Virus record (IMG/VR): IMGVR_UViG_3300032116_012976
Direction: 5' to 3' (one strand)
Length of the DNA: 64,000 nt
DNA from: a virus
Taxonomy: Duplodnaviria; Heunggongvirae; Uroviricota; Caudoviricetes
In this document: positions 5,501-48,278 of the stretch, piece after piece
Numbering within the stretch: the first letter of the stretch is position 1
How the letters are laid out: the number at the start of each line of letters is the position of its first letter
The notes under the pieces: generated by a model
The model's database searches: none
The model's input: only the letters and a program-made list of their open reading frames with translations
Told to the model about the DNA's origin: nothing
Translations under genes and position numbers: made by a program

Positions 5501-6497
5501 TCTGGTATTGATGCACGACACCAGACTGGTTCCTGCCAATTTGTCAAGGCATTTTCCTGTGGACTATGAGTTTTTTGATCCTGGCAAAACATATCCCAGC
5601 AACACAGTTTTTGTTTATGATCATTATCTCAGTGAAATTGCAGTCAAACAGCATCTTGACAGTCATCTGCAAGCTGGCTACAGAGTAATATACGACAACA
5701 AAAATGAACATTGGTTTACCACTGACCAATGGTGGATTGTTGAGCTGCTACAAAAATATCCACAACAACACCTTTTGTTTAGTTTGGGATCACAGCCTGG
5801 CGCATTGCCTGGACTCAGAGTGCAGGCTGTGCCTGCTTGGATATGGCTGCGTTGCCGAGACTATTGGGAAAAATTGAACTATCACAATATTGCATATACT
5901 CCAACTGCACGGTATAAAACATTGTGTATGATCAACTACACACGACCCTGGCGAGACCTGGTGTGGCAAGCATTGAATCCCATGGAGGCAGATGTGATGC
6001 GTAGTTATTTGTCCCAGGGGATCAGCATGCCCGACGATGTTACAGGTGATGGACACTTGTGGCAGGTAAATCCACGTTGGTTTCATATTTCTGCAATGAG
6101 CTTGGTGTGCGAAAGTTCAATTGGTGCTGTTTCTGGAGAAATTTCAGTCACTGCACCGTCAGGTGTGTTTGTGAGCGAAAAAAGTCTAAAGCCCATGGCC
6201 ATGCAACATCCATTTATTGTGGTAGCAACCCCGGGTACCCTAGCAGAGATACAGAGTTTTGGATTTGAAACATTCCCAGAGTTATGGGACGAAAGCTACG
6301 ATTCAATTGTGGACTTTGGTCAGCGATTAAACGTCATTATGCAACAAGTGCAACAGTTTGATACAGCACAATTAAACCAGCTGGTAGTGCAACAAAAACT
6401 CCAACACAATCAGCACAGGATTTTTGATCCTGCGGTAACACAGCAATTGCTACAGCAACAGGTGTTGGATCCCATATTAGAATTTTTAAATGAATAA
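5478..6497 (+). CDS. GT10-like (TEK-motif) glycosyltransferase paralog
   Basis: Block FVSEKSLKPMAMQHPFIVVATPG...FGFETFPELWDESYD. The start may be the ATG at 5484 or 5490. Confidence 0.4.
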   Translation: MGMTMTSNLVLMHDTRLVPANLSRHFPVDYEFFDPGKTYPSNTVFVYDHYLSEIAVKQHLDSHLQAGYRVIYDNKNEHWFTTDQWWIVELLQKYPQQHLLFSLGSQPGALPGLRVQAVPAWIWLRCRDYWEKLNYHNIAYTPTARYKTLCMINYTRPWRDLVWQALNPMEADVMRSYLSQGISMPDDVTGDGHLWQVNPRWFHISAMSLVCESSIGAVSGEISVTAPSGVFVSEKSLKPMAMQHPFIVVATPGTLAEIQSFGFETFPELWDESYDSIVDFGQRLNVIMQQVQQFDTAQLNQLVVQQKLQHNQHRIFDPAVTQQLLQQQVLDPILEFLNE

Positions 6498-36723: not shown

Positions 36724-37200
36724 TTAGGCAGCTCGTAAACTCTTAAATCTATCTGCCGCGTATGATGCTGCAAATGCTTCTGGCTTCACAAACGGAATCA
36801 CATTGCATGTTCCTTTGATGTAGCCCACAGCTTGCGAGATCACACAACTTGAACCGTATTGTTCGTCTGGGTTGATGTCCAAGTGAACTTCAACTTGACG
36901 GCCTTCTAGTACGTCAGCCAGTTTCAAATACAGTTCTGAAACCTTGTACACTTCGGTCATCAAACGCATGGCAGGTTTGCCTGGTTTCACGTCCCACACA
37001 CGCTCGCGTTGAACTTCGCCAAACAGTTTGCAGCCGTTGTTGCCGTTGATGTGTACCACAATGGCCAACACATAGTCGGCATACCAGGTACCGTCAATTT
37101 TGATTCGTTCAGAGTCGCAGCCAAGGTAGATGCGAGTTTCGGGCGTTTGTTTCTGGATAAATTCTGCTACTGATGCTATATCGAGCTTTTTCATTTTCAA
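36724..37200 (-). CDS. hypothetical protein (possibly RNase H-like / DUF458-like)
   Basis: A 158-aa ORF. There is only a weak family impression from ...VHLDINPDEQYG.... Confidence 0.3.
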   Translation of the reverse strand: MKMKKLDIASVAEFIQKQTPETRIYLGCDSERIKIDGTWYADYVLAIVVHINGNNGCKLFGEVQRERVWDVKPGKPAMRLMTEVYKVSELYLKLADVLEGRQVEVHLDINPDEQYGSSCVISQAVGYIKGTCNVIPFVKPEAFAASYAADRFKSLRAA

Positions 37201-37371: not shown

Positions 37372-37707
37372 TTATTCTGTATAATCTTCTACAGTAAATG
37401 ACACAGGAACAACACTAAAAGTTGAAAGTTGTGCAGTCATCCATTCAACAAAGTCTTCTGCATTTTTTTTGTTTTCCCATTTTCGAGTTACAGTTAAATG
37501 GGTGGGACCTAGTTCTGACGGGTCGAGACCTGCGGTACCAACCACAGTAAAGTCATCATGCCCACCGTCTCCAACAATTTGTAAATAATTACTCCAAGGG
37601 ATAATAGTTCTTGCTGTTTCTCGATCTTCTACAGACGCATACACCAACACAGTTTTAGCAACTATAGCCATAATAATCTCCTTTTTGTATTTATTGCTTT
37701 GCGGCAA
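37372..37707 (-). CDS. hypothetical protein
   Basis: A 111-aa ORF followed by a bidirectional terminator. Confidence 0.3.
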   Translation of the reverse strand: MPQSNKYKKEIIMAIVAKTVLVYASVEDRETARTIIPWSNYLQIVGDGGHDDFTVVGTAGLDPSELGPTHLTVTRKWENKKNAEDFVEWMTAQLSTFSVVPVSFTVEDYTE

Positions 37708-38464
37708 TCACGCTTAAATGCCAACCTAGCTGTTGATTGACAGCCTGGCGTTGTGCATCGCTCATGGCAGCAAACCATGGTTCCAACACATAATTTCCTT
37801 GTTTGTACTGCTCTACATTGTACATAAAACAGTAATCTTGCTTGATGCTTTTGATATCAAAGTGTACGTCCAGCAGTTTTTGTATTTCTCCTTGACTGTA
37901 AACTCTGGCATATGGGCAGTTGTCTTGCGCTTCAAACTGGTCCAGCCCAGACTGAATCATTGCCCATTTCCAACTGTTGCGAGCATACACTAGGAAACGA
38001 AACTCCCCATCAGATGCTAGACTTGCGTAAGCATTGCTGACCACTTGTTCTACATTGGGATAGTGATGCAATACACCACAAGCATACACCATATCAAATT
38101 GTCCTAGCCCTGCAACACGCTGACTGTCGCCTGCGTCCATGTGATAGAATTCAGCATCTAATCCCATAACAGTAAATCTCTGCTCACAAAGTTCTATGCT
38201 ACGACTGCTAAGATCAATCCCAACGTATTCAGCACCATGCCGTACAAATTGTTCAGCATCAGATCCAATGCCGCATCCTAGTTCTAGCACCCGCCGTCCC
38301 TTGCAGTTTTCAAAGTCGGCCAACTGCCACAAATGCGGCCCAACAAACCATCTACGACGATTGATGTTGTTCCAAAATTCTTCTGTGCCTTCTGGTGCCA
38401 ACCCATGCTTTATATTACAAGGTTGTTGATCCCAGTACTGTTCTATTTGAGTAATTGTAGCCAT
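37691..38464 (-). CDS. class I SAM-dependent methyltransferase
   Basis: Motif I RVLELGCGIGSD. Length 257 aa. Confidence 0.6.
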   Translation of the reverse strand: MATITQIEQYWDQQPCNIKHGLAPEGTEEFWNNINRRRWFVGPHLWQLADFENCKGRRVLELGCGIGSDAEQFVRHGAEYVGIDLSSRSIELCEQRFTVMGLDAEFYHMDAGDSQRVAGLGQFDMVYACGVLHHYPNVEQVVSNAYASLASDGEFRFLVYARNSWKWAMIQSGLDQFEAQDNCPYARVYSQGEIQKLLDVHFDIKSIKQDYCFMYNVEQYKQGNYVLEPWFAAMSDAQRQAVNQQLGWHLSVIAAKQ

Positions 38465-39047: not shown

Positions 39048-39240
39048 TAAAAAATTAAAAAAGATACTGCTTTGCGTTTAAAGGTACTGAACATCCTTTC
39101 GGGTAGCTCACATCCTTCCTGGCACATGGTTCGACTGTGACTAGCAGTCTGGAACTTAATCCCAGCGGCACCTGGATAACGTTAAGGTCCCTAGCAGTTG
39201 GGCCCATAGTCAATGAGTTTTTCACACATCTTTTCTAAAC

Positions 39241-39316
39241 TTGGAGTAGGTGACAGGACTCGAACCTGCATTATACGGATTTGCAATCCGGCGCCTAGCC
39301 ATTCGGCACACACCTA
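39241..39316 (-). tRNA. tRNA-Cys(GCA)
   Basis: Anticodon loop TTGCAAA. T-arm GCAGGTTCGAGTCCTGT. Confidence 0.55.
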
Positions 39317-39399: not shown

Positions 39400-39406
39400 G
39401 TGTATT

Positions 39407-39625
39407 TTATTTTACTTTGGGTTCTTGACTTTTGTCAAGTTCATGGGGTTCAGCAAATCTTGTGCCGTGGCCCAGATTCCAACTGTCTGCTGTGAAAATT
39501 TTTACAGGCTTCCAGTAACGACTTATGATGTTGTTGACAGCAACAGCCGCCGCCACAATCACTACAAATCCTATTGCTGTCAAAATACTACCAGCTAAGA
39601 ATACAGCCGCTTGATCCATGTCCAT
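39407..39625 (-). CDS. small hydrophobic (membrane) protein embedded in the tRNA array
   Basis: A 72-aa ORF with the hydrophobic core AVFLAGSILTAIGFVVIVAAAVAV. RBS AAGGAAC 7 nt upstream of the ATG. Confidence 0.35.
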   Translation of the reverse strand: MDMDQAAVFLAGSILTAIGFVVIVAAAVAVNNIISRYWKPVKIFTADSWNLGHGTRFAEPHELDKSQEPKVK

Positions 39626-39638
39626 TGTTTGTTCCTTG

Positions 39639-40006: not shown

Positions 40007-40098
40007 TGGTACCCCCACCGGGAGTCGAACCCAGATGAACCAATTATCTGTTGCTTACGGGATATAAATCCGCCGTTTTACCATTAAACTATAGGGGC
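40007..40098 (-). tRNA. class-II-like tRNA (92 nt), anticodon unresolved (candidate UAU)
   Basis: The acceptor, D-arm (TAGTTTAATGGTAAAAC) and T-arm (CTGGGTTCGACTCCCGG) are clear. There is a 25-nt variable arm. The anticodon arm GCGGA-TTTATAT-CCCGT folds imperfectly. Confidence 0.4.
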
Positions 40099-40266: not shown

Positions 40267-40341
40267 TGGTAGGGGCGCCGGGATTCGAACCCGAAATTGG
40301 CAGATTAAAAGTCTGCTGTGATACCGTTTCACCACACCCCC
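40267..40341 (-). tRNA. tRNA-Lys(TTT)
   Basis: Anticodon loop CTTTTAA. T-arm TCGGGTTCGAATCCCGG. Confidence 0.65.
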
Positions 40342-40402
40342 GGTATCTTGTCACTCTTGTCACTATTCATGACAGACTCTCCTTTTTAAAATAAGTATTT
40401 GA

Positions 40403-41527
40403 ATGAACAAATATTGTCCAAAACCATTTGTTAGTATTCATATGTATACTGATAAAGATCTCAATCCAACTGTTAGGCCTTGTTGCAATTACAAACCTAT
40501 CAAGCAGTACGCAACGATTAATGATTATTTGCAATCATCTGAACTAGCGTCTCTTCAGCAACATTTGCTTACAAAAGAATCATTGCCAGATGGATGCAAG
40601 GCATGCAAAGTAGACGAAGATAATAACTTGCCTAGTATCCGAAACAAGTATATTAAAGTGTTTGAGCATGAAACCAAAACTAAAATTGTTGACTTGGAAA
40701 TTTTCCCTGGCAACGCATGTAATCTCAGTTGCTTGTCGTGCAATCCTTCTCATAGTACCAAATCAGGTCAGGAATATGCCAAACTTGGATGGATTAAACA
40801 ATCAATAGTGATCAATCACGAAGATCATGCACTTGAAGTTATTAAACAGTTGCCAGACCTTAAATCAATAGGTTTTATTGGCGGCGAATTTTTTGTAACC
40901 AAACACAATATTGAATTGCTCGATGCGGTTATTGAAAAAAATCTTAAAACACGAATTATTACCAATGCCACTCAACTAACCAAAAAACATCTTGAGCGGT
41001 TACAAAAAATATCTGACCTTGATGTGATGGTTAGTGTAGACGGTACTGGGCCAACATTTGAATTTTTACGCTATCCGGCACAATGGTCAGTTGTGCAATC
41101 AAACATTGTTGCACTACAACAGGCATTGCCCGGAGCAAAGATACATTTGTCGGCAGTGTTGCAATTTTTAAATTTGCAAAATATCATTGAACTGTTTGAA
41201 TACGCCAATGTCCGTCGACTGCCATTTAATGTGATCCCTTTATCTTATCCTGTTTGGCTACAGTCAGAAGTGCTTACCACTCTCGAACGTCAGCAGTTGA
41301 TTGCAGTTATACAAAAACAACTAACAGTTGCAAAACTTACCAAAACACAAAAACAGTTAATGACTGATACATGTAGTATGCTAGAAACAATACAGCACTC
41401 ACCTGCTCAACGAGAACAGTTTGTGTCTCGAACAAGCCAGCTGATTCGACTGCGCAACATCACACAACACACAATCAACTCAGTGTTTGGTGTGCTAGAA
41501 AATTTAGCGCAAGAAGTTATACAATAG
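40403..41527 (+). CDS. radical SAM enzyme, paralog 6 (inside the tRNA array)
   Basis: Motif GNACNLSCLSCNP (CxxxCxxC). N-terminal Cys cluster C..CC...CKACK. Motif FIGGEFFV. Block GPTFEFLRYPAQW. Confidence 0.65.
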   Translation: MNKYCPKPFVSIHMYTDKDLNPTVRPCCNYKPIKQYATINDYLQSSELASLQQHLLTKESLPDGCKACKVDEDNNLPSIRNKYIKVFEHETKTKIVDLEIFPGNACNLSCLSCNPSHSTKSGQEYAKLGWIKQSIVINHEDHALEVIKQLPDLKSIGFIGGEFFVTKHNIELLDAVIEKNLKTRIITNATQLTKKHLERLQKISDLDVMVSVDGTGPTFEFLRYPAQWSVVQSNIVALQQALPGAKIHLSAVLQFLNLQNIIELFEYANVRRLPFNVIPLSYPVWLQSEVLTTLERQQLIAVIQKQLTVAKLTKTQKQLMTDTCSMLETIQHSPAQREQFVSRTSQLIRLRNITQHTINSVFGVLENLAQEVIQ

Positions 41528-41645: not shown

Positions 41646-41856
41646 GTATTGAATTTGAGAGTAGTAGCATCACTGTTATTGCTACCATTGACCCGTGTAA
41701 TAAAGCCGGCCGGGAGGGTGATACGTCACTTGGAATACTTAACACACAGATTGATTACTTAGTTGTGTACGGAATCACGCCGCCCGTGCTTTACACTAGG
41801 TTGACCTTCGAAGAATCTTCCTAGCGTGTCTTTCTCTTGCTGACACTCTCAAAACT

Positions 41857-42031: not shown

Positions 42032-42107
42032 TGGCTCCCCAGCGTGGGATCGAACCACGGACACCTTGATTAACAGTCAAGTGCAACTACCGCTGTGCTA
42101 CTAGGGA
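42032..42107 (-). tRNA. tRNA-Asn(GTT)
   Basis: Anticodon stem CTTGA/TCAAG. Anticodon loop CTGTTAA. Confidence 0.65.
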
Positions 42108-42400: not shown

Positions 42401-42574
42401 ATAATTTTAACACACTCTTGCGAATGTGTGTATTAAAACATTCTAAACTACTTAGGCTGCCTGTTTGTAAAGAATGTTTTAATACGCTCGGATTTTTTTA
42501 TGTACAAGAACATAAGCCATCCCCGAGGCCGCCCATTTGTAGTTTAGAGTGATACAGGCTCGCGTTGCCGTTGC

Positions 42575-42612
42575 ACTAAATGAAAAAACCCAGGGTTTTT
42601 ACGCCTGGGTCC
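42575..42612. terminator. terminator-like hairpin
   Basis: aaaaaacccaggg-ttttta-cgcctgggtcc. Confidence 0.35.
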
Positions 42613-42809
42613 TTGGGTAAGATACGGTTGTATACTACTTAGGACCCTCTGCCTCCTGGAATGCTATTCATGCGACCATAGGCGTGTGACCAAACTGGTG
42701 TCTGGGCAAACTTGGGTAGCAGTGAACAATATTGTGTTTTCATCATAAGTCCTATTGTACAGTATTTACCTTTTGAGGTCAACCACTGTGTTAAAGTTAT
42801 TTAGCCTTT

Positions 42810-42884
42810 CGGCTGAATTGGTTGCGGGGGAAGGAATCGAACCTCCGTCTCCCAGGTTATGAGCCTGGTGGTCTACCGCTGACG
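42810..42884 (-). tRNA. tRNA-fMet(CAT), putative initiator
   Basis: Anticodon loop CTCATAA. A C1:A72 mismatch, as in bacterial initiator tRNA. The anticodon stem CCAGG/CCTGG has two of the three initiator G:C pairs. Confidence 0.55.
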
Positions 42885-44014
42885 TACCCCGCGATTGAAT
42901 TATTTATATAGAAACACACTCTATGCTTGGGGAACAATTCATTGAATTGAGCAACCACCAACGGGTACGGAGTGCGTTTGTATATAAAGTGGCGGACTGA
43001 GAATACATCCTAACCCAGTAACACCTCGGACATTATTACAAACCTTGCGAGTCTGCTTTCTTCCGATTTCCACTGCAACCATATTGCTATGTATCACAGT
43101 CTGTTACCAGTATCGCCGTTTTTAAAGACAGGCAGTAGTCTTGTCATCACATGCTACTCTACACCATCTATCCCGTTGACCTTTAGAGCCATTCACTGTC
43201 GCTAAACAGTTACGAAACTTCCAGTATAAACAGATTTCACCTTGCGAGTTACGTCTGACTGTATTGCCTTGCGGCTACAGCATTAGATACTTTTCACACA
43301 TGACCGAGTCAGTCTTTGCTTTTATGTTAGATAGTGGTTTTGAAGCCACAGCCTATTCCTTAACAGGGAATTGCTCTACGATGAGCTATATCAACCTACT
43401 GCGATGTGCTGACTCAGTTGCTTCATACTCTTTTGGAATACAAAATACAACACACCACGTTCCTTTTGTCTTGCGAACTACTCAGACGTCTTTTGCGATC
43501 AGTGTCGGGTCTCGGCTTTCGCGTACCTCCACCAACCACTCAAACTGCATACGAGCCCTTGGGTGCAACCCCTCGGACCGATACGCTACCCTTTCTCATA
43601 CCAATTAACTGGGCTGGTTTTGTATAGAAGTCAGCACCACCTGTTACTTTTCTGCAACTCCGGTTACCCTTGCGGGCCGGTAAGTTACAGCTCTTTCCTA
43701 TACTCCCAGCGTCATTGTTACAACCACCGGTCTTATCAGTGATCGGATCCTCACGGACCTGAGCAGGCTTGTTTACATGAACCATTGCTGGCGGACTTAT
43801 GTAGGCATACATCCTTTGGCTGGGTCACCCCAGTTATTCTTCGTACAGCTGGGCGAACCATACTGCACAGGACAATAAACTGCCCTATGTATCTATTGTA
43901 AGACAAACGTCTTTTGTTGTCAAACAGTTTTGGATAAATTTGTTGTTTATCTATCCAAAATAGTCTGTAACAGTTTTCTGCAGTCGTGTTACAGTGGGCA
44001 AATAAGTACCCCAC

Positions 44015-44986
44015 ATGATCACTGAAATCTTAACCTATCACCACAGTCTCGACTGGAACATTGAACAATTCGTTGATAGCACATGTCTAGCAAACATTGT
44101 TCAGCCACACTGGCCAATGGTAACTTCTTCCAAAGGAGGATTGATACCAACAAATAAACCCAGCCGAGACTTTTTTGAGCTCAATAAAAAACGAGGACGT
44201 CCTACTGAACTTAGGAACAGTACCATTGACGCCTTGGTCAGTCTTGTGGCAACAAAATTGCATCTCAACGGATTTGTTACGAATGTGGTAGCAGAATGCA
44301 GTGGAAGCATGCATGCCTTGTACACTGCATCCATGGTGAGCTTGCAACACCAATTACCAGTGATTGTTTTTTGTGCTGATAATTTAGTTGATGACGAACT
44401 TCACATGTGGCGATTTGCCAGTATGGGTGCATTGGATCAATCCTCAGGAAGAGCATTTGACTCAACCAGTACTGGATTTCGAATGGGTAGAGGCATGGCT
44501 GCAATGTTGATAAAACATCCAAGTGTAAAATTCAACATGAGTGCATTTGCCACAATCAGCAATTATATCTTTCGTACCAACCCCACACTCATAGCCAATC
44601 CAGGTGATGCGCACCAATTGGCCAGAGATATTTCTGGCATCAATTTTGACACCATTGATTTTTGGAATGCACATGCAACAGGCACTCCAGTGGGAGATCA
44701 ATTTGAGTACAATGTTTTTAATTCTTTAGTTCACAAAGACATACCTATTGTCAGCTACAAAAGCCGCATAGGGCACTGTATCTCAGCCAGCGGCGCCATT
44801 GAAATGTGCATGAGTTTTGACGATTACCGTGCAAAAACCCTAAGACCCAATGTGTTAGCTGGTGATCTCATAGTCAAAGATTCAAGGATCATCGTAGATG
44901 CTGTGCCGTTTCCGGGCAAACGCATACTCAAGGCCAATTTTGGATTTGGCGGCAAAAACAGTTTTTGCCAAATTGACATTGAATAG
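44015..44986 (+). CDS. beta-ketoacyl-ACP synthase (FabF/FabB)-like protein lacking the N-terminal ~100 residues; possible gene remnant
   Basis: KAS motifs AECSGSMHAL (active-site Cys region), NAHATGTPVGD, KSRIGHCISASGAIE and NFGFGGKNSF. The alignment to FabF begins around residue 100. It is flanked by more than 1 kb of non-coding sequence on each side. Confidence 0.55.
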   Translation: MITEILTYHHSLDWNIEQFVDSTCLANIVQPHWPMVTSSKGGLIPTNKPSRDFFELNKKRGRPTELRNSTIDALVSLVATKLHLNGFVTNVVAECSGSMHALYTASMVSLQHQLPVIVFCADNLVDDELHMWRFASMGALDQSSGRAFDSTSTGFRMGRGMAAMLIKHPSVKFNMSAFATISNYIFRTNPTLIANPGDAHQLARDISGINFDTIDFWNAHATGTPVGDQFEYNVFNSLVHKDIPIVSYKSRIGHCISASGAIEMCMSFDDYRAKTLRPNVLAGDLIVKDSRIIVDAVPFPGKRILKANFGFGGKNSFCQIDIE

Positions 44987-44988
44987 AT

Positions 44989-45144
44989 TCTATAGTCAAG
45001 CACCGAGAGATGCTCAATTTATGCGTCCTCCGCTAAGAGTGCAATAGCCGATAGCAGTTATATTAGGATCCGTTCCCGGCCGGTTGGACCCGAATAGCGT
45101 AAGCGTCCTTACACGATACCTTTATCGGTGCTTGACTATAAAAA
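44989..45144. repeat. 16-bp perfect inverted repeat pair (tatagtcaagcaccga / tcggtgcttgactata) enclosing ~120 nt directly after the ketosynthase-like ORF
   Basis: Read directly from the sequence. Confidence 0.5.
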
Positions 45145-45596
45145 CTAAAAGTTCGGATTTGAAAATCAAATCCTCCCACTGCTAACTACTGCTTCCCAAT
45201 TTATCGTCCATCGGCACCCGTGGTAGGGCTTGCGATGCTCATCGGCCCTGAGTTCTGGCTCAGGTGATCCTTGGGATAGGACTGCTGGGCCTTGTCCTGC
45301 CCAGCATCAGGAAAATTAGTTGCTCTGCATCCCCCGGCGGTAATTGTAGTGCATCATCTCTTGGGTTGCCCCGCAATTCTCACACACCTTCCACCCGCTT
45401 CCCGACAGGGACCGCTATCGTGTTGCTAACGGCCTTTCGGTAAGAAGACTACCACCCTTGAGAGTCACCTCACTTCTTATCCTGCGGGTCACAGTATCCG
45501 CTAACCAAGCGGAACGTCGGGGAGAAGCCACGGTTGCAGGACCTAGTGCTCTTGCGAGGAAGTGTCCAGGCGATGTGGCTTCAAACTTGAGGCATC

Positions 45597-45676
45597 ATGT
45601 GGGATTCGAACCCACGCAAGAAAACCTTGATGATCATTCAAGGTTGAAGCAAACCACACTCCGTTACATCCTATGA
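45597..45676 (-). ncRNA. tRNA-like remnant or unknown structured RNA
   Basis: Read on the minus strand, a perfect T-arm GTGGGTTCGAATCCCAC and a pairing acceptor (GCGTCAT/ATGATGC) are present. The internal region does not fold as a standard tRNA, and no CCA is encoded. Confidence 0.3.
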
Positions 45677-46063
45677 CGCCATAAACTTGGTGGACAACAA
45701 TGGGAATCTAACCCACTTCTTCCTCGTATGCTATTACGAAGTTTCATACCAGCCTCAGGTAATTGACACATCATGTCCATAAACTTGGCGGTCCCAGGGG
45801 GTAACGATCCCCCTCCTCAGCAGTGACAGTGCTGTGTGCGTCCATGAACACCTTGAGACCAAATTAGGATAAGCTACTGGGTTCCACGCCAGCCCTTAAT
45901 TGAGCAGTTACTCTGTCCATCTCATTTATTCAAAGTCTGTGTGCAGTGAGATTCTGCCTATCAGAGTCTGTAAGGGTAGTCTCCATCCTTACGCTTACGG
46001 TCTTCTGCCACCGGATCTCTATCGCTAATCAAACGCTACTTTAACGAAAGTAGTAACGGGATT

Positions 46064-46138
46064 TGGTAGAGCGTAGGGGAATCGAACCCCTCTTACAGGC
46101 GTGAAAGGCTTGTGTCCTAACCGATAGACGAACGCTCC
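46064..46138 (-). tRNA. tRNA-Glu(TTC)
   Basis: Anticodon loop CTTTCAC. T-arm AGGGGTTCGATTCCCCT. Confidence 0.55.
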
Positions 46139-46473
46139 ATAGTTCACTATATGAAAACACATTAGGGAAGTTCTTGACACGCATCACCAACTTGCATCAA
46201 GACCTCATTACAGGCCCAGTAGTTCCGCCGCCTTCCTGGAGTTTGGTGTAGCCTTATCCCTCACGCTCGATGGTGTCTCGCGCTACTCTTAGGCCCTCCT
46301 GCTTCATGGGTATCCGGCTCGAATCAGCCTTTGTTCACCCCTAACGGACTAGGTAACCCTAATGTGTTTACATATAGTGCCCAGAACTTAATCTGGGGCA
46401 CTATACAAAATTAAATTTTTAACGAACTTCAAAGTAGTTTCGATCAACTGCCTTTGTTTTCTAACTAGTCTCT

Positions 46474-46502
46474 AGTATAGCATCTCCTGCTTTACTGGTC
46501 AA
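46474..46502 (-). promoter_or_regulatory. sigma70-like promoter TTGACC-N17-TGCTATACT (copy 1 of a tandem pair)
   Basis: It lies within a 26-nt direct repeat ttttctaact.gt.tctagtatagca. It is oriented toward tRNA-Glu and the non-coding region. Confidence 0.5.
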
Positions 46503-46572
46503 CTTGTTTTGTAAATGCCCCGCCTTGTTGCAGGGTCTTTACAAACTTCGCTGTTTTTCTAACTTGTGTCTA

Positions 46573-46601
46573 GTATAGCACCAATCCAATTATTGGTCTA
46601 C
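46573..46601 (-). promoter_or_regulatory. sigma70-like promoter TAGACC-N17-TGCTATACT (copy 2, weaker -35)
   Basis: The second copy of the direct repeat. Confidence 0.4.
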
Positions 46602-46607
46602 TGCCAT

Positions 46608-46638
46608 AAAAAAACCCGCCTACTTGGCGGGTTTTTTG
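46608..46638. terminator. bidirectional rho-independent terminator downstream of the porin-like gene
   Basis: aaaaaaacccgcctacttggcgggtttttt. Confidence 0.65.
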
Positions 46639-46656
46639 GTTTGTACTACTTCTGTT

Positions 46657-47547
46657 TTAGAACTGTACGACCAACCCGCCTGCTACTTGTTTGACATCAG
46701 TGGCTGCTGAGGTTCCCTCAACTGTACGATACAAAACTTGTGCATAGGTCTTTTTGCTGAAAGCATACTCAGCACCTACGTTGTAACTCTTGATGCCATT
46801 TTCAATGCGACCATAGCTGGCCTTCACTGTGACTGGTCCACCAAGTTTGTGTGCCACGCCGACCAACTGAGCACGGTTGGTGTTGGCAGCAACGCCTTTG
46901 TTGTCGCTTGCGCTGGCAAACACAGTGGTTGCACCAAATTTAGCACGAGCAGCCAACACGTCACTGGTTTCTGCGCCAGCTTCGTAACGAGCATAAGTCA
47001 ACACAGCAGGTCCAACTGCGGCAATCACGGATGCGGCATAAGGATCAGCGGCAGTGCCAACAGCACCAGTGCTACGATCAAAGTTAGCAGAGACATTGCC
47101 AAAGTTCACAGAAGTGAAAGCGGCATTGCTCAAACGCAAACCACGCAGGTTATGCACGTCGGCAGCTGAGCTACCAATCAATGTGCCAAATGGATCATTG
47201 TCGCTGATGGCCAAGAAGTGAGTGTGAACATTGCGACCAAGATCAACGCTACCCATTTTGTGAGCAATACCCACGGTGCTTTGGCGATCGCCAAGTCTAG
47301 TGTCAGTACCAGTGTCTGGGCTGTTGGCTTGGATGCCGGTCTCGTATGTGGCACGAGCTGTTAATCCGCCACCTAAGTTTTCAGTAGCACGAATGCCAAA
47401 GTGACTCAAGTCATTGGCCATGCCTTGCACGGTGGAAGCACCAGTTTTGGTGTTGTCAAGGTAAGTGCCAACACGACCATAGATACCAACTTGTGCGCTT
47501 GCAACACCAGCAACTGCCAGGGTCAACGCAATTAGAACTTTCTTCAT
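46657..47547 (-). CDS. outer-membrane beta-barrel porin-like protein
   Basis: Signal peptide MKKVLIALTLAVAGVASAQ. A Gly/Thr/Ala-rich body. C-terminal ...GGLVVQF ending in Phe. Its own promoter and terminator are present. Confidence 0.5.
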   Translation of the reverse strand: MKKVLIALTLAVAGVASAQVGIYGRVGTYLDNTKTGASTVQGMANDLSHFGIRATENLGGGLTARATYETGIQANSPDTGTDTRLGDRQSTVGIAHKMGSVDLGRNVHTHFLAISDNDPFGTLIGSSAADVHNLRGLRLSNAAFTSVNFGNVSANFDRSTGAVGTAADPYAASVIAAVGPAVLTYARYEAGAETSDVLAARAKFGATTVFASASDNKGVAANTNRAQLVGVAHKLGGPVTVKASYGRIENGIKSYNVGAEYAFSKKTYAQVLYRTVEGTSAATDVKQVAGGLVVQF

Positions 47548-47595: not shown

Positions 47596-47625
47596 ATTAT
47601 ATAGCACAAACACTGAGAATGTCAA
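47596..47625 (-). promoter_or_regulatory. sigma70-like promoter TTGACA-N16-18-TGCTATATAAT
   Basis: Upstream of the porin-like gene. Confidence 0.5.
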
Positions 47626-47644
47626 AGAAAATGGCTACTTTCGC

Positions 47645-47680
47645 AGCCATTTTGGTGGTTTCTGTTACGAGGTATTTCCT
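47645..47680. terminator. terminator-like hairpin between the minihelix region and the porin promoter
   Basis: aaaatggct-actttcgc-agccatttt. Confidence 0.35.
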
Positions 47681-48024
47681 ACCCTAGACGACCTTAAGCG
47701 GCCATCAAGAATTTTTCATCATTTGCAGATAAAAGTTTTGCTTGATTTACGGTCATCGCCTACCGTGCTGTCCACTCTGTTACTCTTTGCCCTGTCGAAT
47801 CTAGGTCAGGCCCATCATAAAGAAACTTAATCTACGCTTAATGTTGTTAACAACAAGCATAATATTGGAAAAACAATTAATAAAAATTTTGCTAAATTTT
47901 CCATATTACCATAACTCACAGTTTTTTATTTTCTCTTCGTCCAATGTGGTATCACGTGTAAAATAAAATACACCAAACACTAACCAAAATAACAAAAATA
48001 AAACATAACCTATCATTAAACTTC

Positions 48025-48070
48025 CTTATGGTGGACCTGGGGGGATTCGCACCCCCGTCCAGAACACTTT
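48025..48070 (-). ncRNA. tmRNA/tRNA 3'-end-like minihelix (T-arm, acceptor 3' strand and CCA) without a 5' partner
   Basis: The minus strand reads GGACGGGGGTGCGAATCCCCCCAGGTCCACCA. This resembles tmRNA 3' ends (GGACG.GGGTTCAA.TCCC.CCAGCTCCACCA). No complementary 5' acceptor strand was found within 400 nt. Confidence 0.35.
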
Positions 48071-48278
48071 TCTCTCGGCTTCATACAGCAATAACTCGCA
48101 GTATATATTTATTCTTTGGGCTTGTCAACTGCTTTGGAGATGATGTCATACACTTGTGCGTATGCATCAGTAATTTTGTCTAGTTGTTGTTCCGACACCA
48201 AGTCTGTGTCCTCCAGACTGACCAAGTCTCGGGCTAGATTTTCTTGTAGTTTTTTTATGGGATTGAGCACATACCTAT

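Follow-up and report, generated by a model that had tools for sequence, protein, structure and literature searches.

Why an interval of phage DNA should be almost devoid of protein genes is the question raised by positions 42410–46650 of IMG/VR virus record IMGVR_UViG_3300032116_012976 (Caudoviricetes), of which a stretch of 64,000 nt, hereafter the window, was analysed. A sequence-only reading of this DNA had offered two explanations, large structured non-coding RNAs (ncRNAs) or a decaying acquired segment with a ketosynthase pseudogene. We consider it probable (about 0.85) that the interval is not decaying DNA, and that it continues the minus-strand transfer RNA (tRNA) and transfer-messenger RNA (tmRNA) array of a large phage, packed with ncRNA genes and carrying an intact ketosynthase cassette.

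The low coding density was borne out: the ketosynthase gene (Table 1) is the sole credible protein gene, protein-coding sequence amounts to 23%, and the other open reading frames (ORFs) of at least 40 aa do not exceed 130 aa, many of them overlapping tRNA genes and none being credible. RNA genes on the minus strand fill about 67% of the interval, approximately 90% of which is thereby assigned in all. The interval sits within a minus-strand array of 30 tRNA genes and a two-piece tmRNA (31 genes, ARAGORN) that extends across 36.4–49.1 kb. The sequence-only reading had missed the tRNA-Met and tRNA-Asp genes and a GOLLD RNA inside the interval; its suggestion of large structured ncRNAs was well founded, since a full-length GOLLD RNA with a covarying 5′ domain is present together with six more modules, for which z-scores of –3.1 to –12.8 against column shuffles were obtained. 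These modules, which were tested by means of nhmmer, MAFFT, RNAalifold and column-shuffle controls, make up the remaining gaps of the interval, are conserved, and are found also in otherwise unrelated contigs.

Matches to PHROG families elsewhere in the window (HNH endonuclease, exonuclease, a carbamoyltransferase auxiliary gene, tRNA methyltransferase) indicate a large phage. The tmRNA (47603–48121, minus strand) is of the two-piece, permuted type, matches the Betaproteobacteria tmRNA model of Rfam, and has the tag peptide ANDEKFLMAA. Comparable tmRNAs occur in Bordetella phage PHB04 and in 10 loci bearing RNA A, one of the modules described below. Judged from this type of tmRNA, the host range probably lies within the Betaproteobacteria.

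The FabF-like ketosynthase gene

The ORF had been described as a FabF-like protein that starts near residue 100 and retains the C-terminal catalytic motifs. The similarity is real: residues 36–316 align to positions ~102–405 of FabF, the Cys and both His motifs are present, and the Pfam domains PF02801 (54.6 bits, E = 1.3e-14) and PF00109 (29.2 bits, E = 8.6e-07) both score above their cut-offs of 20.8. The truncation is not, as the ORF has the full length of a family of 321–329 aa. The opposite view, that an acquired ketosynthase gene has lost its N-terminus while neighbouring genes eroded to non-coding DNA, can draw on the ~90 aa by which the protein falls short of FabF, its residue 36 being already aligned to FabF position ~102, but it has to contend with the conservation of that length in more than 50 homologues. 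Among 53 homologues retrieved at E < 1e-30, 51 have a length of 321–329 aa and align with at least 99% of the ORF, their identities ranging from 93% down to 39%; no variation occurs among 37 family members at C95, H220, K249, and H254, which comprise the catalytic Cys, the two His and the Lys. The AlphaFold2 model is confident (predicted local distance difference test 94.1, predicted template modelling (TM) score 0.92) and shows the thiolase-type fold in full, with the usual first β strand at its start, formed by residues 3–11. Its best match in the PDB, as found by Foldseek, is FabF (4ddo), with a query-normalised TM-score of 0.81 over 338 columns and the whole length of the protein; the target-normalised score of 0.63 reflects the ~90 missing residues.

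The surroundings likewise bear on decay. The gene is the only one on the plus strand in a neighbourhood of minus-strand genes, and it is present in some relatives and absent from others (see below), hence acquired, which would suit a degenerating insertion; its flanks, however, are conserved structured RNA genes, retained in many contigs, rather than eroded ORFs. In relatives that lack GOLLD, only about 50 nt separate tRNA-Met from the ketosynthase start codon, too little to accommodate a lost N-terminus. The search for a frameshifted N-terminal remnant in 42900–44014, which the sequence-only reading had proposed, is therefore moot, that segment being the GOLLD gene. Homologue lengths, invariant residues, the confident model and the whole-length superposition on FabF together argue that the ORF is not a truncated remnant, and decay of the segment is barely tenable. 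We conclude that the gene is an intact, compact auxiliary metabolic gene for a predicted enzyme with a complete FabF-like fold. This corrects a likely misannotation, in that a conserved compact family of phage enzymes would otherwise pass for a pseudogene.

Homologues on large phage-like contigs adjoin fatty-acid desaturase and hydroxylase genes. Searches of IMG/VR with peptide patterns yielded no close relatives of the ketosynthase; relatives were obtained through exact-protein look-ups. Two contigs of another phage lineage, whose ketosynthase homologue is 43% identical, contain a homologue of module D (see below) in a 1.7-kb gene-free gap (L055, 10637–10971; L056, 10632–10966), so the joint occurrence of the ketosynthase gene with tRNA-island RNAs is not confined to a single lineage.

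A GOLLD RNA gene and two exchangeable cassettes

The Rfam scan that the sequence-only reading had recommended identified a GOLLD RNA at 42994–43458 on the minus strand (RF02032, 204.1 bits at a gathering score of 150, E = 8.7e-57), with the match covering positions 1–416 of the 416-position model. This model spans only the last hairpin of the 5′ domain, the linker and the conserved 3′ domain. The remaining 5′ half was analysed with RNAalifold in an alignment of six related sequences, which gave 142 consensus pairs, 32 of them compensatory, and a z-score of –14.6 against column shuffles. The 5′ end was placed from a predicted sigma70-type promoter, from which the transcript length given in Table 1 follows. 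Of this promoter, relative L069 shows the –35 hexamer followed by the initial 14 nt of the spacer, with three substitutions in the latter. Five relatives contain GOLLD copies scoring 165–204 bits, all five with a tRNA nested in the linker. In the window the nested gene is a tRNA-Asn whose sequence differs from that of the array's own tRNA-Asn (42032–42107); it was recognized by ARAGORN at a relaxed threshold only. Described GOLLD RNAs have a less conserved 5′ region of about 420 nt and a linker that sometimes contains tRNAs (PMC12286853). By sequence, the RNA is a genuine GOLLD, a new member of a known family.

Comparison with related phages, also suggested beforehand, revealed that GOLLD and the ketosynthase gene vary as units, while the non-coding flanks are conserved. 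The contigs of the closest ketosynthase homologues (L059, L060, L169) have kept the ketosynthase gene and lack the whole GOLLD unit including its promoter. Conversely, L069 and L070 retain GOLLD and lack the ketosynthase gene, the junction reading CCAAAATAGTY / TCTATAGTCAAGC. Both elements are missing from L173 and both are present in L164; a GOLLD RNA was not detected by Rfam in either L173 or L161. The cassette junctions have few bases in common (short microhomologies). Direct repeats flanking the ketosynthase gene (43922/44956) were considered as deletion end-points and rejected, as the real junctions do not match them. GOLLD and the ketosynthase gene thus appear, from these junctions, to be independent cassettes of about 1 kb that were separately inserted. 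Short microhomologies would have been the sites of both insertions, and in the ancestral layout tRNA-Met would have been directly next to module A′. Near-identical phages that differ only by the GOLLD or the ketosynthase cassette represent natural knock-outs for comparison.

A further present-or-absent cassette, like the ketosynthase gene, is an ORF for a radical S-adenosylmethionine protein (40403–41527, plus strand), which lies on the opposite strand within the tRNA array; window positions 40268–41522 are missing from relative L069.

Structured RNAs between the tRNA genes

The lead to RNA A was a blastn comparison with cultured phages, in which window positions 45191–45285 matched an unannotated segment of Bordetella phage PHB04 at 80.6% identity, the other phages giving tRNA matches only. 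The PHB04 match adjoins that phage's own two-piece tmRNA, RNA A being located there at 47.0–47.3 kb (NC_047861). Exact conserved words of RNA A occur in 52 IMG/VR contigs, two of these being chance matches in unrelated sequence, and a second conserved word in 25; the RNA is present in at least 119 metagenome contigs, whereas no exact word matched any of 185,579 bacterial and archaeal species genomes. The 167 copies recovered comprise 104 unique core sequences.

A hand-built structure with an H-type pseudoknot was evaluated on an alignment (A4) of 30 diverse copies. Paired positions can pair in 99.7% of the cells, and 22 of the 44 pairs are compensatory. The covariation score was 0.371 as against 0.124 for shuffled alignments, none of 500 of which reached the observed value, and at most 0.065 for slid controls. 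The pseudoknot itself covaries (CCUG/CAGG, CUUG/CAAG, UCUG/CAGA). In each of 100 parsable unique copies, purines are followed by a self-complementary hexamer in a loop, five forms of which occur among these copies; the hexamer is also self-complementary in PHB04 and in L083, the latter having a sixth form, UAGCUA, in addition to UAGUUA, UUGUAA, UUGCAA, UCGCGA, and UCGUGA. Hexamer positions 2 and 5 (alignment columns 133 and 136) covary, with 15 AU, 9 UA and 6 CG combinations and no unpaired case. We propose a homodimer because the covarying hexamer is palindromic and adjacent nucleotides cannot pair within one chain; the sequences thus suggest that RNA A pairs with a second copy through its loop. 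The same argument from self-complementary loops has been applied to intermolecular kissing loops of GOLLD and OLE RNAs (PMC12286853).

Palindromes may also act in DNA, and the modules might be hot spots of recombination, palindromes bound by proteins, or signals for origin function or packaging. The region is mosaic, with cassette junctions at short microhomologies, and contains several long inverted repeats besides the palindromic hexamer; the hexamer variants UAGUUA, UUGUAA, and UCGUGA as well as helices of RNAs A and B, however, keep G-U wobbles on one strand, which a DNA palindrome would not tolerate. Moreover, the strand relation of the modules to the tRNA genes is absolute, and a repeat scan revealed no iteron-like tandem arrays. 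DNA-level elements are thus a very unlikely explanation, as compared to structured RNAs. Other functional readings of RNA A motifs, namely complementarity of the invariant GGAUCAC to the 3′ end of 16S rRNA and a loop ACCA as a mimic of the tRNA CCA end, concern words too short to test and are not claimed.

In 27 of 169 loci, RNA A is followed by module A′. An alignment of 18 unique sequences of A′ (RNAalifold) contained 37 consensus pairs with 21 compensatory ones (z = –12.8). The inverted repeat previously noted at 44989/45129 was recovered as 44984–45006/45125–45147 (23 nt, 91% complementary), with a perfect 17-mer inside. A role of A′ as bidirectional terminator of the ketosynthase gene was rejected: neither strand has a U-run, A′ is kept in phages without the ketosynthase gene, and tRNA-Met is next to it in L173. 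Likewise, B, A and A′ do not form a single RNA of 600 nt, being adjacent in the clade of the window only; elsewhere RNA A stands alone between tRNAs (e.g. in L032, where at most 164 nt are available).

RNAs B and C are equally widespread. An invariant 19-mer of RNA B and an invariant word of RNA C were each found in at least 117 IMG/VR contigs, among them contigs of 300–520 kb. For RNA B, 93 unique sequences gave 42 pairs, 25 of them compensatory, with z = –10.3 (z = –4.9 in a smaller set spanning 45312–45590); 87 unique sequences of RNA C gave 41 pairs and 11 compensatory ones, with z = –9.8. Taken alone, the seven RNA C sequences of the window's clade yielded z = –3.1, the weakest result of the six modules. 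Downstream of RNA C, tRNA-Asp begins within 40 nt in 55 of 99 loci, as in the window. RNA C is always located upstream of RNA B, at a distance of 354–2259 nt; this variable spacing, and the occurrence of each RNA without the other, led us to dismiss the idea that C, tRNA and B form a split giant RNA with a nested tRNA in the manner of GOLLD.

For many copies of A, B and C, a tRNA lies no more than 40 nt from one of the ends, and in distinct loci the ratio of tRNA genes (ARAGORN) on the same strand to those on the opposite strand is 564:0 for A, 1441:0 for B and 1418:0 for C. Searched against Rfam 15 with lax filters at E ≤ 10, A, B, C, A′, D, and F produced chance-level matches only (at most 26 bits, far below gathering scores). 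A scan of 28 related loci at the gathering score yielded nothing but tRNA, tmRNA, GOLLD and a single group I intron, and eight loci with words of B or C yielded tRNAs only. The conserved words of A, B and C did not occur in the literature searched, and no similarity to Escherichia coli housekeeping RNAs was detected. Lax cmscan also returned nothing for the candidate classes considered for A, B and C: hammerhead (CCGAUGAG closely resembles CUGAUGAG), twister (shared words CCCAAG, GAUAAA, and GGGAGG), RNase P, signal recognition particle RNA, 5S rRNA, and the c-di-GMP-I, T-box, Y-RNA-like, Drum and freshwater motifs. A, B and C are, as judged from their alignments, three widespread structured RNAs without an Rfam family, each present in more than 100 viral or metagenome contigs. 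The group I intron (RF00028, 51.2 bits) is located at 5670–5872, minus strand, in the tRNA region of an RNA A-bearing contig (L028).

Module D, a putative leader RNA upstream of tRNA-Glu, gave 41 pairs, 13 of them compensatory, in eight sequences (z = –5.7). Its long-range stem (46145–46167/46357–46379, 23 nt, 96%) had escaped the sequence-only reading, which had reported a perfect inverted repeat at 46383/46402; instead, TATAGTGCCCAGA (~46373–46385) pairs with TCTGGGGCACTATA (46393–46406) with a 1-nt bulge, and this hairpin overlaps the repeat that forms the long-range stem. As CACUAUA is common to the 3′ arm of the 5′ hairpin and the 5′ arm of the long-range stem, the two partly exclude each other; the overlap could act as a switch or reflect coaxial stacking. 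Upstream of module D, the direct repeat reported to carry two sigma70 promoters that fire into the region was found, the promoters P1 and P2 being directed leftward and the repeat (46446–46482/46544–46580) measuring 37 nt at 81% identity. The block 46454–46660 is kept at 75–93% identity in more than 10 contigs. A porin gene (46657–47547, minus strand; PF13609, E = 2.8e-25), of Gram-negative type and with a signal-peptide-like N-terminus, lies directly upstream of the promoters of the RNA operon.

Module F is predicted to yield a ~170-nt transcript, bounded by a promoter and by a terminator whose stem covaries; promoter, reading frame and terminator are kept in 14 homologues, and RNAalifold found 63 pairs, including 18 compensatory ones (z = –10.9 against column shuffles). 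The inverted repeat reported at 42428/42470 is indeed perfect (42430–42444/42471–42485, 15 nt), and the resulting 15-bp hairpin is accompanied by another hairpin just upstream of tRNA-Trp. Module F is either a small RNA or a leaderless micro-ORF.

Several points weigh against the picture of an interval filled with RNA genes. The ends, processing and abundance of the transcripts are inferred throughout. Exact conserved words served to collect RNAs A, B and C, which biases the alignments to close relatives and leaves the most conserved stretches without covariation. Related sequences may beat shuffle controls without being structured, and the slid controls counter this for RNA A only. Helices 3 and 5 of RNA A are invariant, alternative CCCAA/UUGGG pairings are indistinguishable, and the palindromic loop could instead be a protein-binding site at the DNA level. 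The alignment of module D is poor (66% identical) and its detailed structure is tentative. A second tRNA-like element has a weak fold (z = –1.7). The scan gave 8 promoter-like sites for the region, compared to 6.5 ± 2.6 for shuffled sequence, so that what speaks for the promoters is not the scan but the fact that related contigs conserve them; terminator-like sites (3, compared to 3.9 ± 2.0) show no excess either. Finally, module F keeps a frame of 35–44 aa in all homologues, which makes a leaderless micro-ORF possible.

The last point could be extended to all conserved gaps, which would then encode small unannotated proteins instead of RNAs. The frame of module F begins at the predicted transcription start, contains a conserved NSIPG motif and is enclosed by promoter and terminator; its codon positions nevertheless vary equally (18, 22 and 23 variable sites of 35), showing no 3-periodicity. 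In A, B and C, helices covary and long invariant stretches without 3-periodicity occur, the consensus sequences of B and C have stop codons in all frames, 44987–46465 contains no ORF longer than 72 aa, and tRNAs bound many copies within 40 nt on both sides. Micro-ORFs throughout the gaps are therefore quite unlikely, and structured RNAs remain the preferred interpretation.

Of the tRNA genes, tRNA-Glu had been recognized beforehand and was found by ARAGORN. The tRNA-like element with a perfect T arm, previously placed at 45597–45676, is present as well (Table 1); its T arm reads GUGGG-UUCGAAU-CCCAC, and the four-arm fold has a z-score of –3.0. For a canonical tRNA, we asked for a 7-bp acceptor stem, a 5-bp anticodon stem, a purine at position 37, and at least 29 bits or detection by ARAGORN at default settings. 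The element scored 20 bits against the gathering score of 29, was reported by ARAGORN at the 80% threshold only, and has C instead of a purine at position 37 in its loop AUGAUCA; it is not a standard tRNA. The assignment of the second tRNA-like element is weak. A 15-nt repeat, CCATAAACTTGGYGG, marks the 3′ ends.

The tRNA array outside the interval contains further conserved sequences. The gaps 41646–41856 (211 nt, without credible ORF), 39048–39241 and 39401–39638 have 40, 15 and 7 nhmmer matches, respectively, in related phage loci and may be additional tRNA-island RNA modules. A 158-aa ORF among the tRNA genes (36724–37200, minus strand) has 67 homologous stretches in related phage loci and is a conserved protein gene; a methyltransferase ORF within the array (37691–38464, minus strand) matches phage tRNA-methyltransferase families. 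The tRNA-Ile (TAT) gene at 40007–40098 (minus strand) is unusually long for tRNA-Ile (92 nt) and may carry an insertion or an intron.

Table 1. Predicted genes, RNA modules and signals of the interval, with positions in the window
Feature	Position	Length	Strand	Characteristics
Module F	42401–42818		–	promoter, ~170-nt transcript, terminator, hairpins
Module F intrinsic terminator	~42612–42580		–	stem covaries
Module F reading frame	42746–42639	35–44 aa	–	starts at predicted transcription start
Module F promoter	42782–42754		–	promoter-like site, conserved
tRNA-Met (CAT)	42819–42893		–	ARAGORN; Rfam tRNA 55.1 bits
GOLLD cassette	42917–43992	~1.07 kb		window 42916 joined to 43993 in L059, L060, L169
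GOLLD RNA	42994–43888	~895 nt	–	3′ domain, linker and last 5′-domain hairpin 42994–43458; 5′ domain 43459–~43888
tRNA-Asn (GTT), nested in GOLLD linker	43325–43396		–	Rfam tRNA 50.6 bits; ARAGORN at relaxed threshold
GOLLD sigma70-type promoter	43923–43895		–	TTGACA, 17 nt, TACAAT; 11/12 matches
Ketosynthase cassette	43965–44988	~1.02 kb		window 43964 joined to 44982–44989 in L069, L070
Ketosynthase gene	44015–44986	323 aa	+	compact, FabF-like; Pfam, homologues, model
Module A′	44987–45150	164 nt	–	closed by 23-bp inverted repeat; optional 3′ extension of RNA A
RNA A	45155–45311 (45311→45155)	157 nt	–	pseudoknotted; self-complementary loop hexamer UAGUUA here; no Rfam family
RNA B core	45321–45518	~199 nt	–	extra 5′ hairpin up to 45590 in this lineage; no Rfam family
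tRNA-like element	45589–45680		–	8-bp acceptor stem, 8-bp arm with 7-nt loop AUGAUCA, canonical T arm
Second tRNA-like element (weak)	45690–45780		–	ends CCACCA; T-arm-like hairpin
tRNA-Asp (GTC)	45786–45860		–	ARAGORN; Rfam tRNA 36.2 bits
RNA C	45861–46063	~200 nt	–	between tRNA-Glu and tRNA-Asp; no Rfam family
tRNA-Glu (TTC)	46064–46138		–	ARAGORN; Rfam tRNA 53.8 bits
Module D	46139–46465	~330 nt	–	leader RNA upstream of tRNA-Glu; 5′ hairpin 46373–46406; 23-bp long-range stem
Tandem sigma70-type promoter P1	46502–46474		–	TTGACC-17-TATACT
Tandem sigma70-type promoter P2	46600–46572		–	TAGACC-17-TATACT
Bidirectional intrinsic terminator	46609–46637			12-bp stem between A and T runs; ends upstream porin gene

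Proposed expression and relation to known systems

Transcription from the tandem promoters at 46.5–46.6 kb would proceed leftward through D, tRNA-Glu, C, tRNA-Asp, the two tRNA-like elements, B, A and A′, and internal promoters would restart it for GOLLD and for module F. The tRNAs would punctuate the transcript, and the structured RNAs between them would be freed individually by the ordinary tRNA-processing enzymes of the host, with RNase P cleaving at tRNA 5′ ends and RNase Z, RNase E or exonucleases trimming 3′ ends. Co-transcription and tRNA-punctuated release are proposed because of the gene layout and the absolute strand bias. As a working guess by analogy, A, B and C, like GOLLD, may act on translation or on the tRNA machinery in infection. 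In a more far-reaching interpretation, to which we give even odds, A, B and C would be three undescribed classes of phage RNAs that lie in tRNA arrays and are processed from them, the phages being uncultured and for the most part from freshwater. RNA A would form an RNA-only homodimer or a larger assembly via a palindromic kissing loop, and together with GOLLD these RNAs would constitute a swappable toolkit directed against host translation or tRNA-directed defence. The occurrence of RNA A in one cultured phage, Bordetella phage PHB04, makes its expression, processing, dimerisation and deletion phenotype directly testable.

The ketosynthase shares with FabF and FabB of the thiolase superfamily both Pfam domains, the Cys-His-His triad, the conserved Lys and, in the model, the overall fold. 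It differs from FabF in its length (about 410 aa for the latter) and shows 16–23% identity to solved structures, forming a distinct family on large phage-like contigs.

The GOLLD RNA of the window agrees with its family in a size of about 0.9 kb, a variable 5′ and a conserved 3′ domain, phage origin, location in a tRNA island beside tRNA-Met, and a tRNA in the linker. Compared with described GOLLD RNAs, nothing essential is different; new are the predicted sigma70 promoter of its own, the organization as a present-or-absent cassette, and the probable Betaproteobacteria hosts. GOLLD RNA reportedly goes back to Weinberg et al. in 2009. The cryo-electron microscopy structure of GOLLD env-38 is a 14-mer RNA-only nanocage (PMC12286853), and by homology to this solved structure the RNA described here should form an RNA-only 14-mer cage as well.

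The loop of RNA A resembles the kissing loop of the dimerisation initiation site (DIS) of human immunodeficiency virus type 1 (HIV-1), which contains a palindromic six-nucleotide sequence preceded by 5′ purines, with variants that are again palindromic. Both share the self-complementary hexamer, the 5′ purines, a hairpin loop of 8–9 nt, and the palindromic nature of the variants. In contrast to the DIS, the closing stem of the RNA A loop has just two canonical pairs, wobble pairs are central in most variants, and the dimer is a predicted one. RNA A is thus a candidate for the short list of natural RNAs that may self-associate.

Phage T4 encodes two small stable RNAs, C and D (species 1 and 2), which are located between tRNA genes, co-transcribed with them and freed by tRNA-processing enzymes. 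RNAs A, B and C of the window are alike in their place among tRNA genes and are larger and more elaborately structured. Homology to the T4 RNAs is unlikely, since T4-like phages matched the interval through tRNA genes only.

Phage tRNA islands are already known to harbour the giant RNAs GOLLD and ROOL, and manA and EGFOA are phage RNAs near tRNA islands that, alongside ROOL, form RNA-only multimers (preprint 10.64898/2026.07.01.735769). With ROOL, manA and EGFOA, RNAs A, B and C have in common that they are phage-encoded, predicted to be highly structured and located in tRNA islands, RNA A in addition having a covarying self-complementary loop. They are much smaller than ROOL (~160–200 nt as compared to ~580 nt), and bear no relation to it in sequence or predicted fold. 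None of these Rfam families matched at E ≤ 10. The window suggests a wider phenomenon, in which at least three more structured RNA families, none of them represented in Rfam, share the tRNA islands of phages with the giant RNAs.

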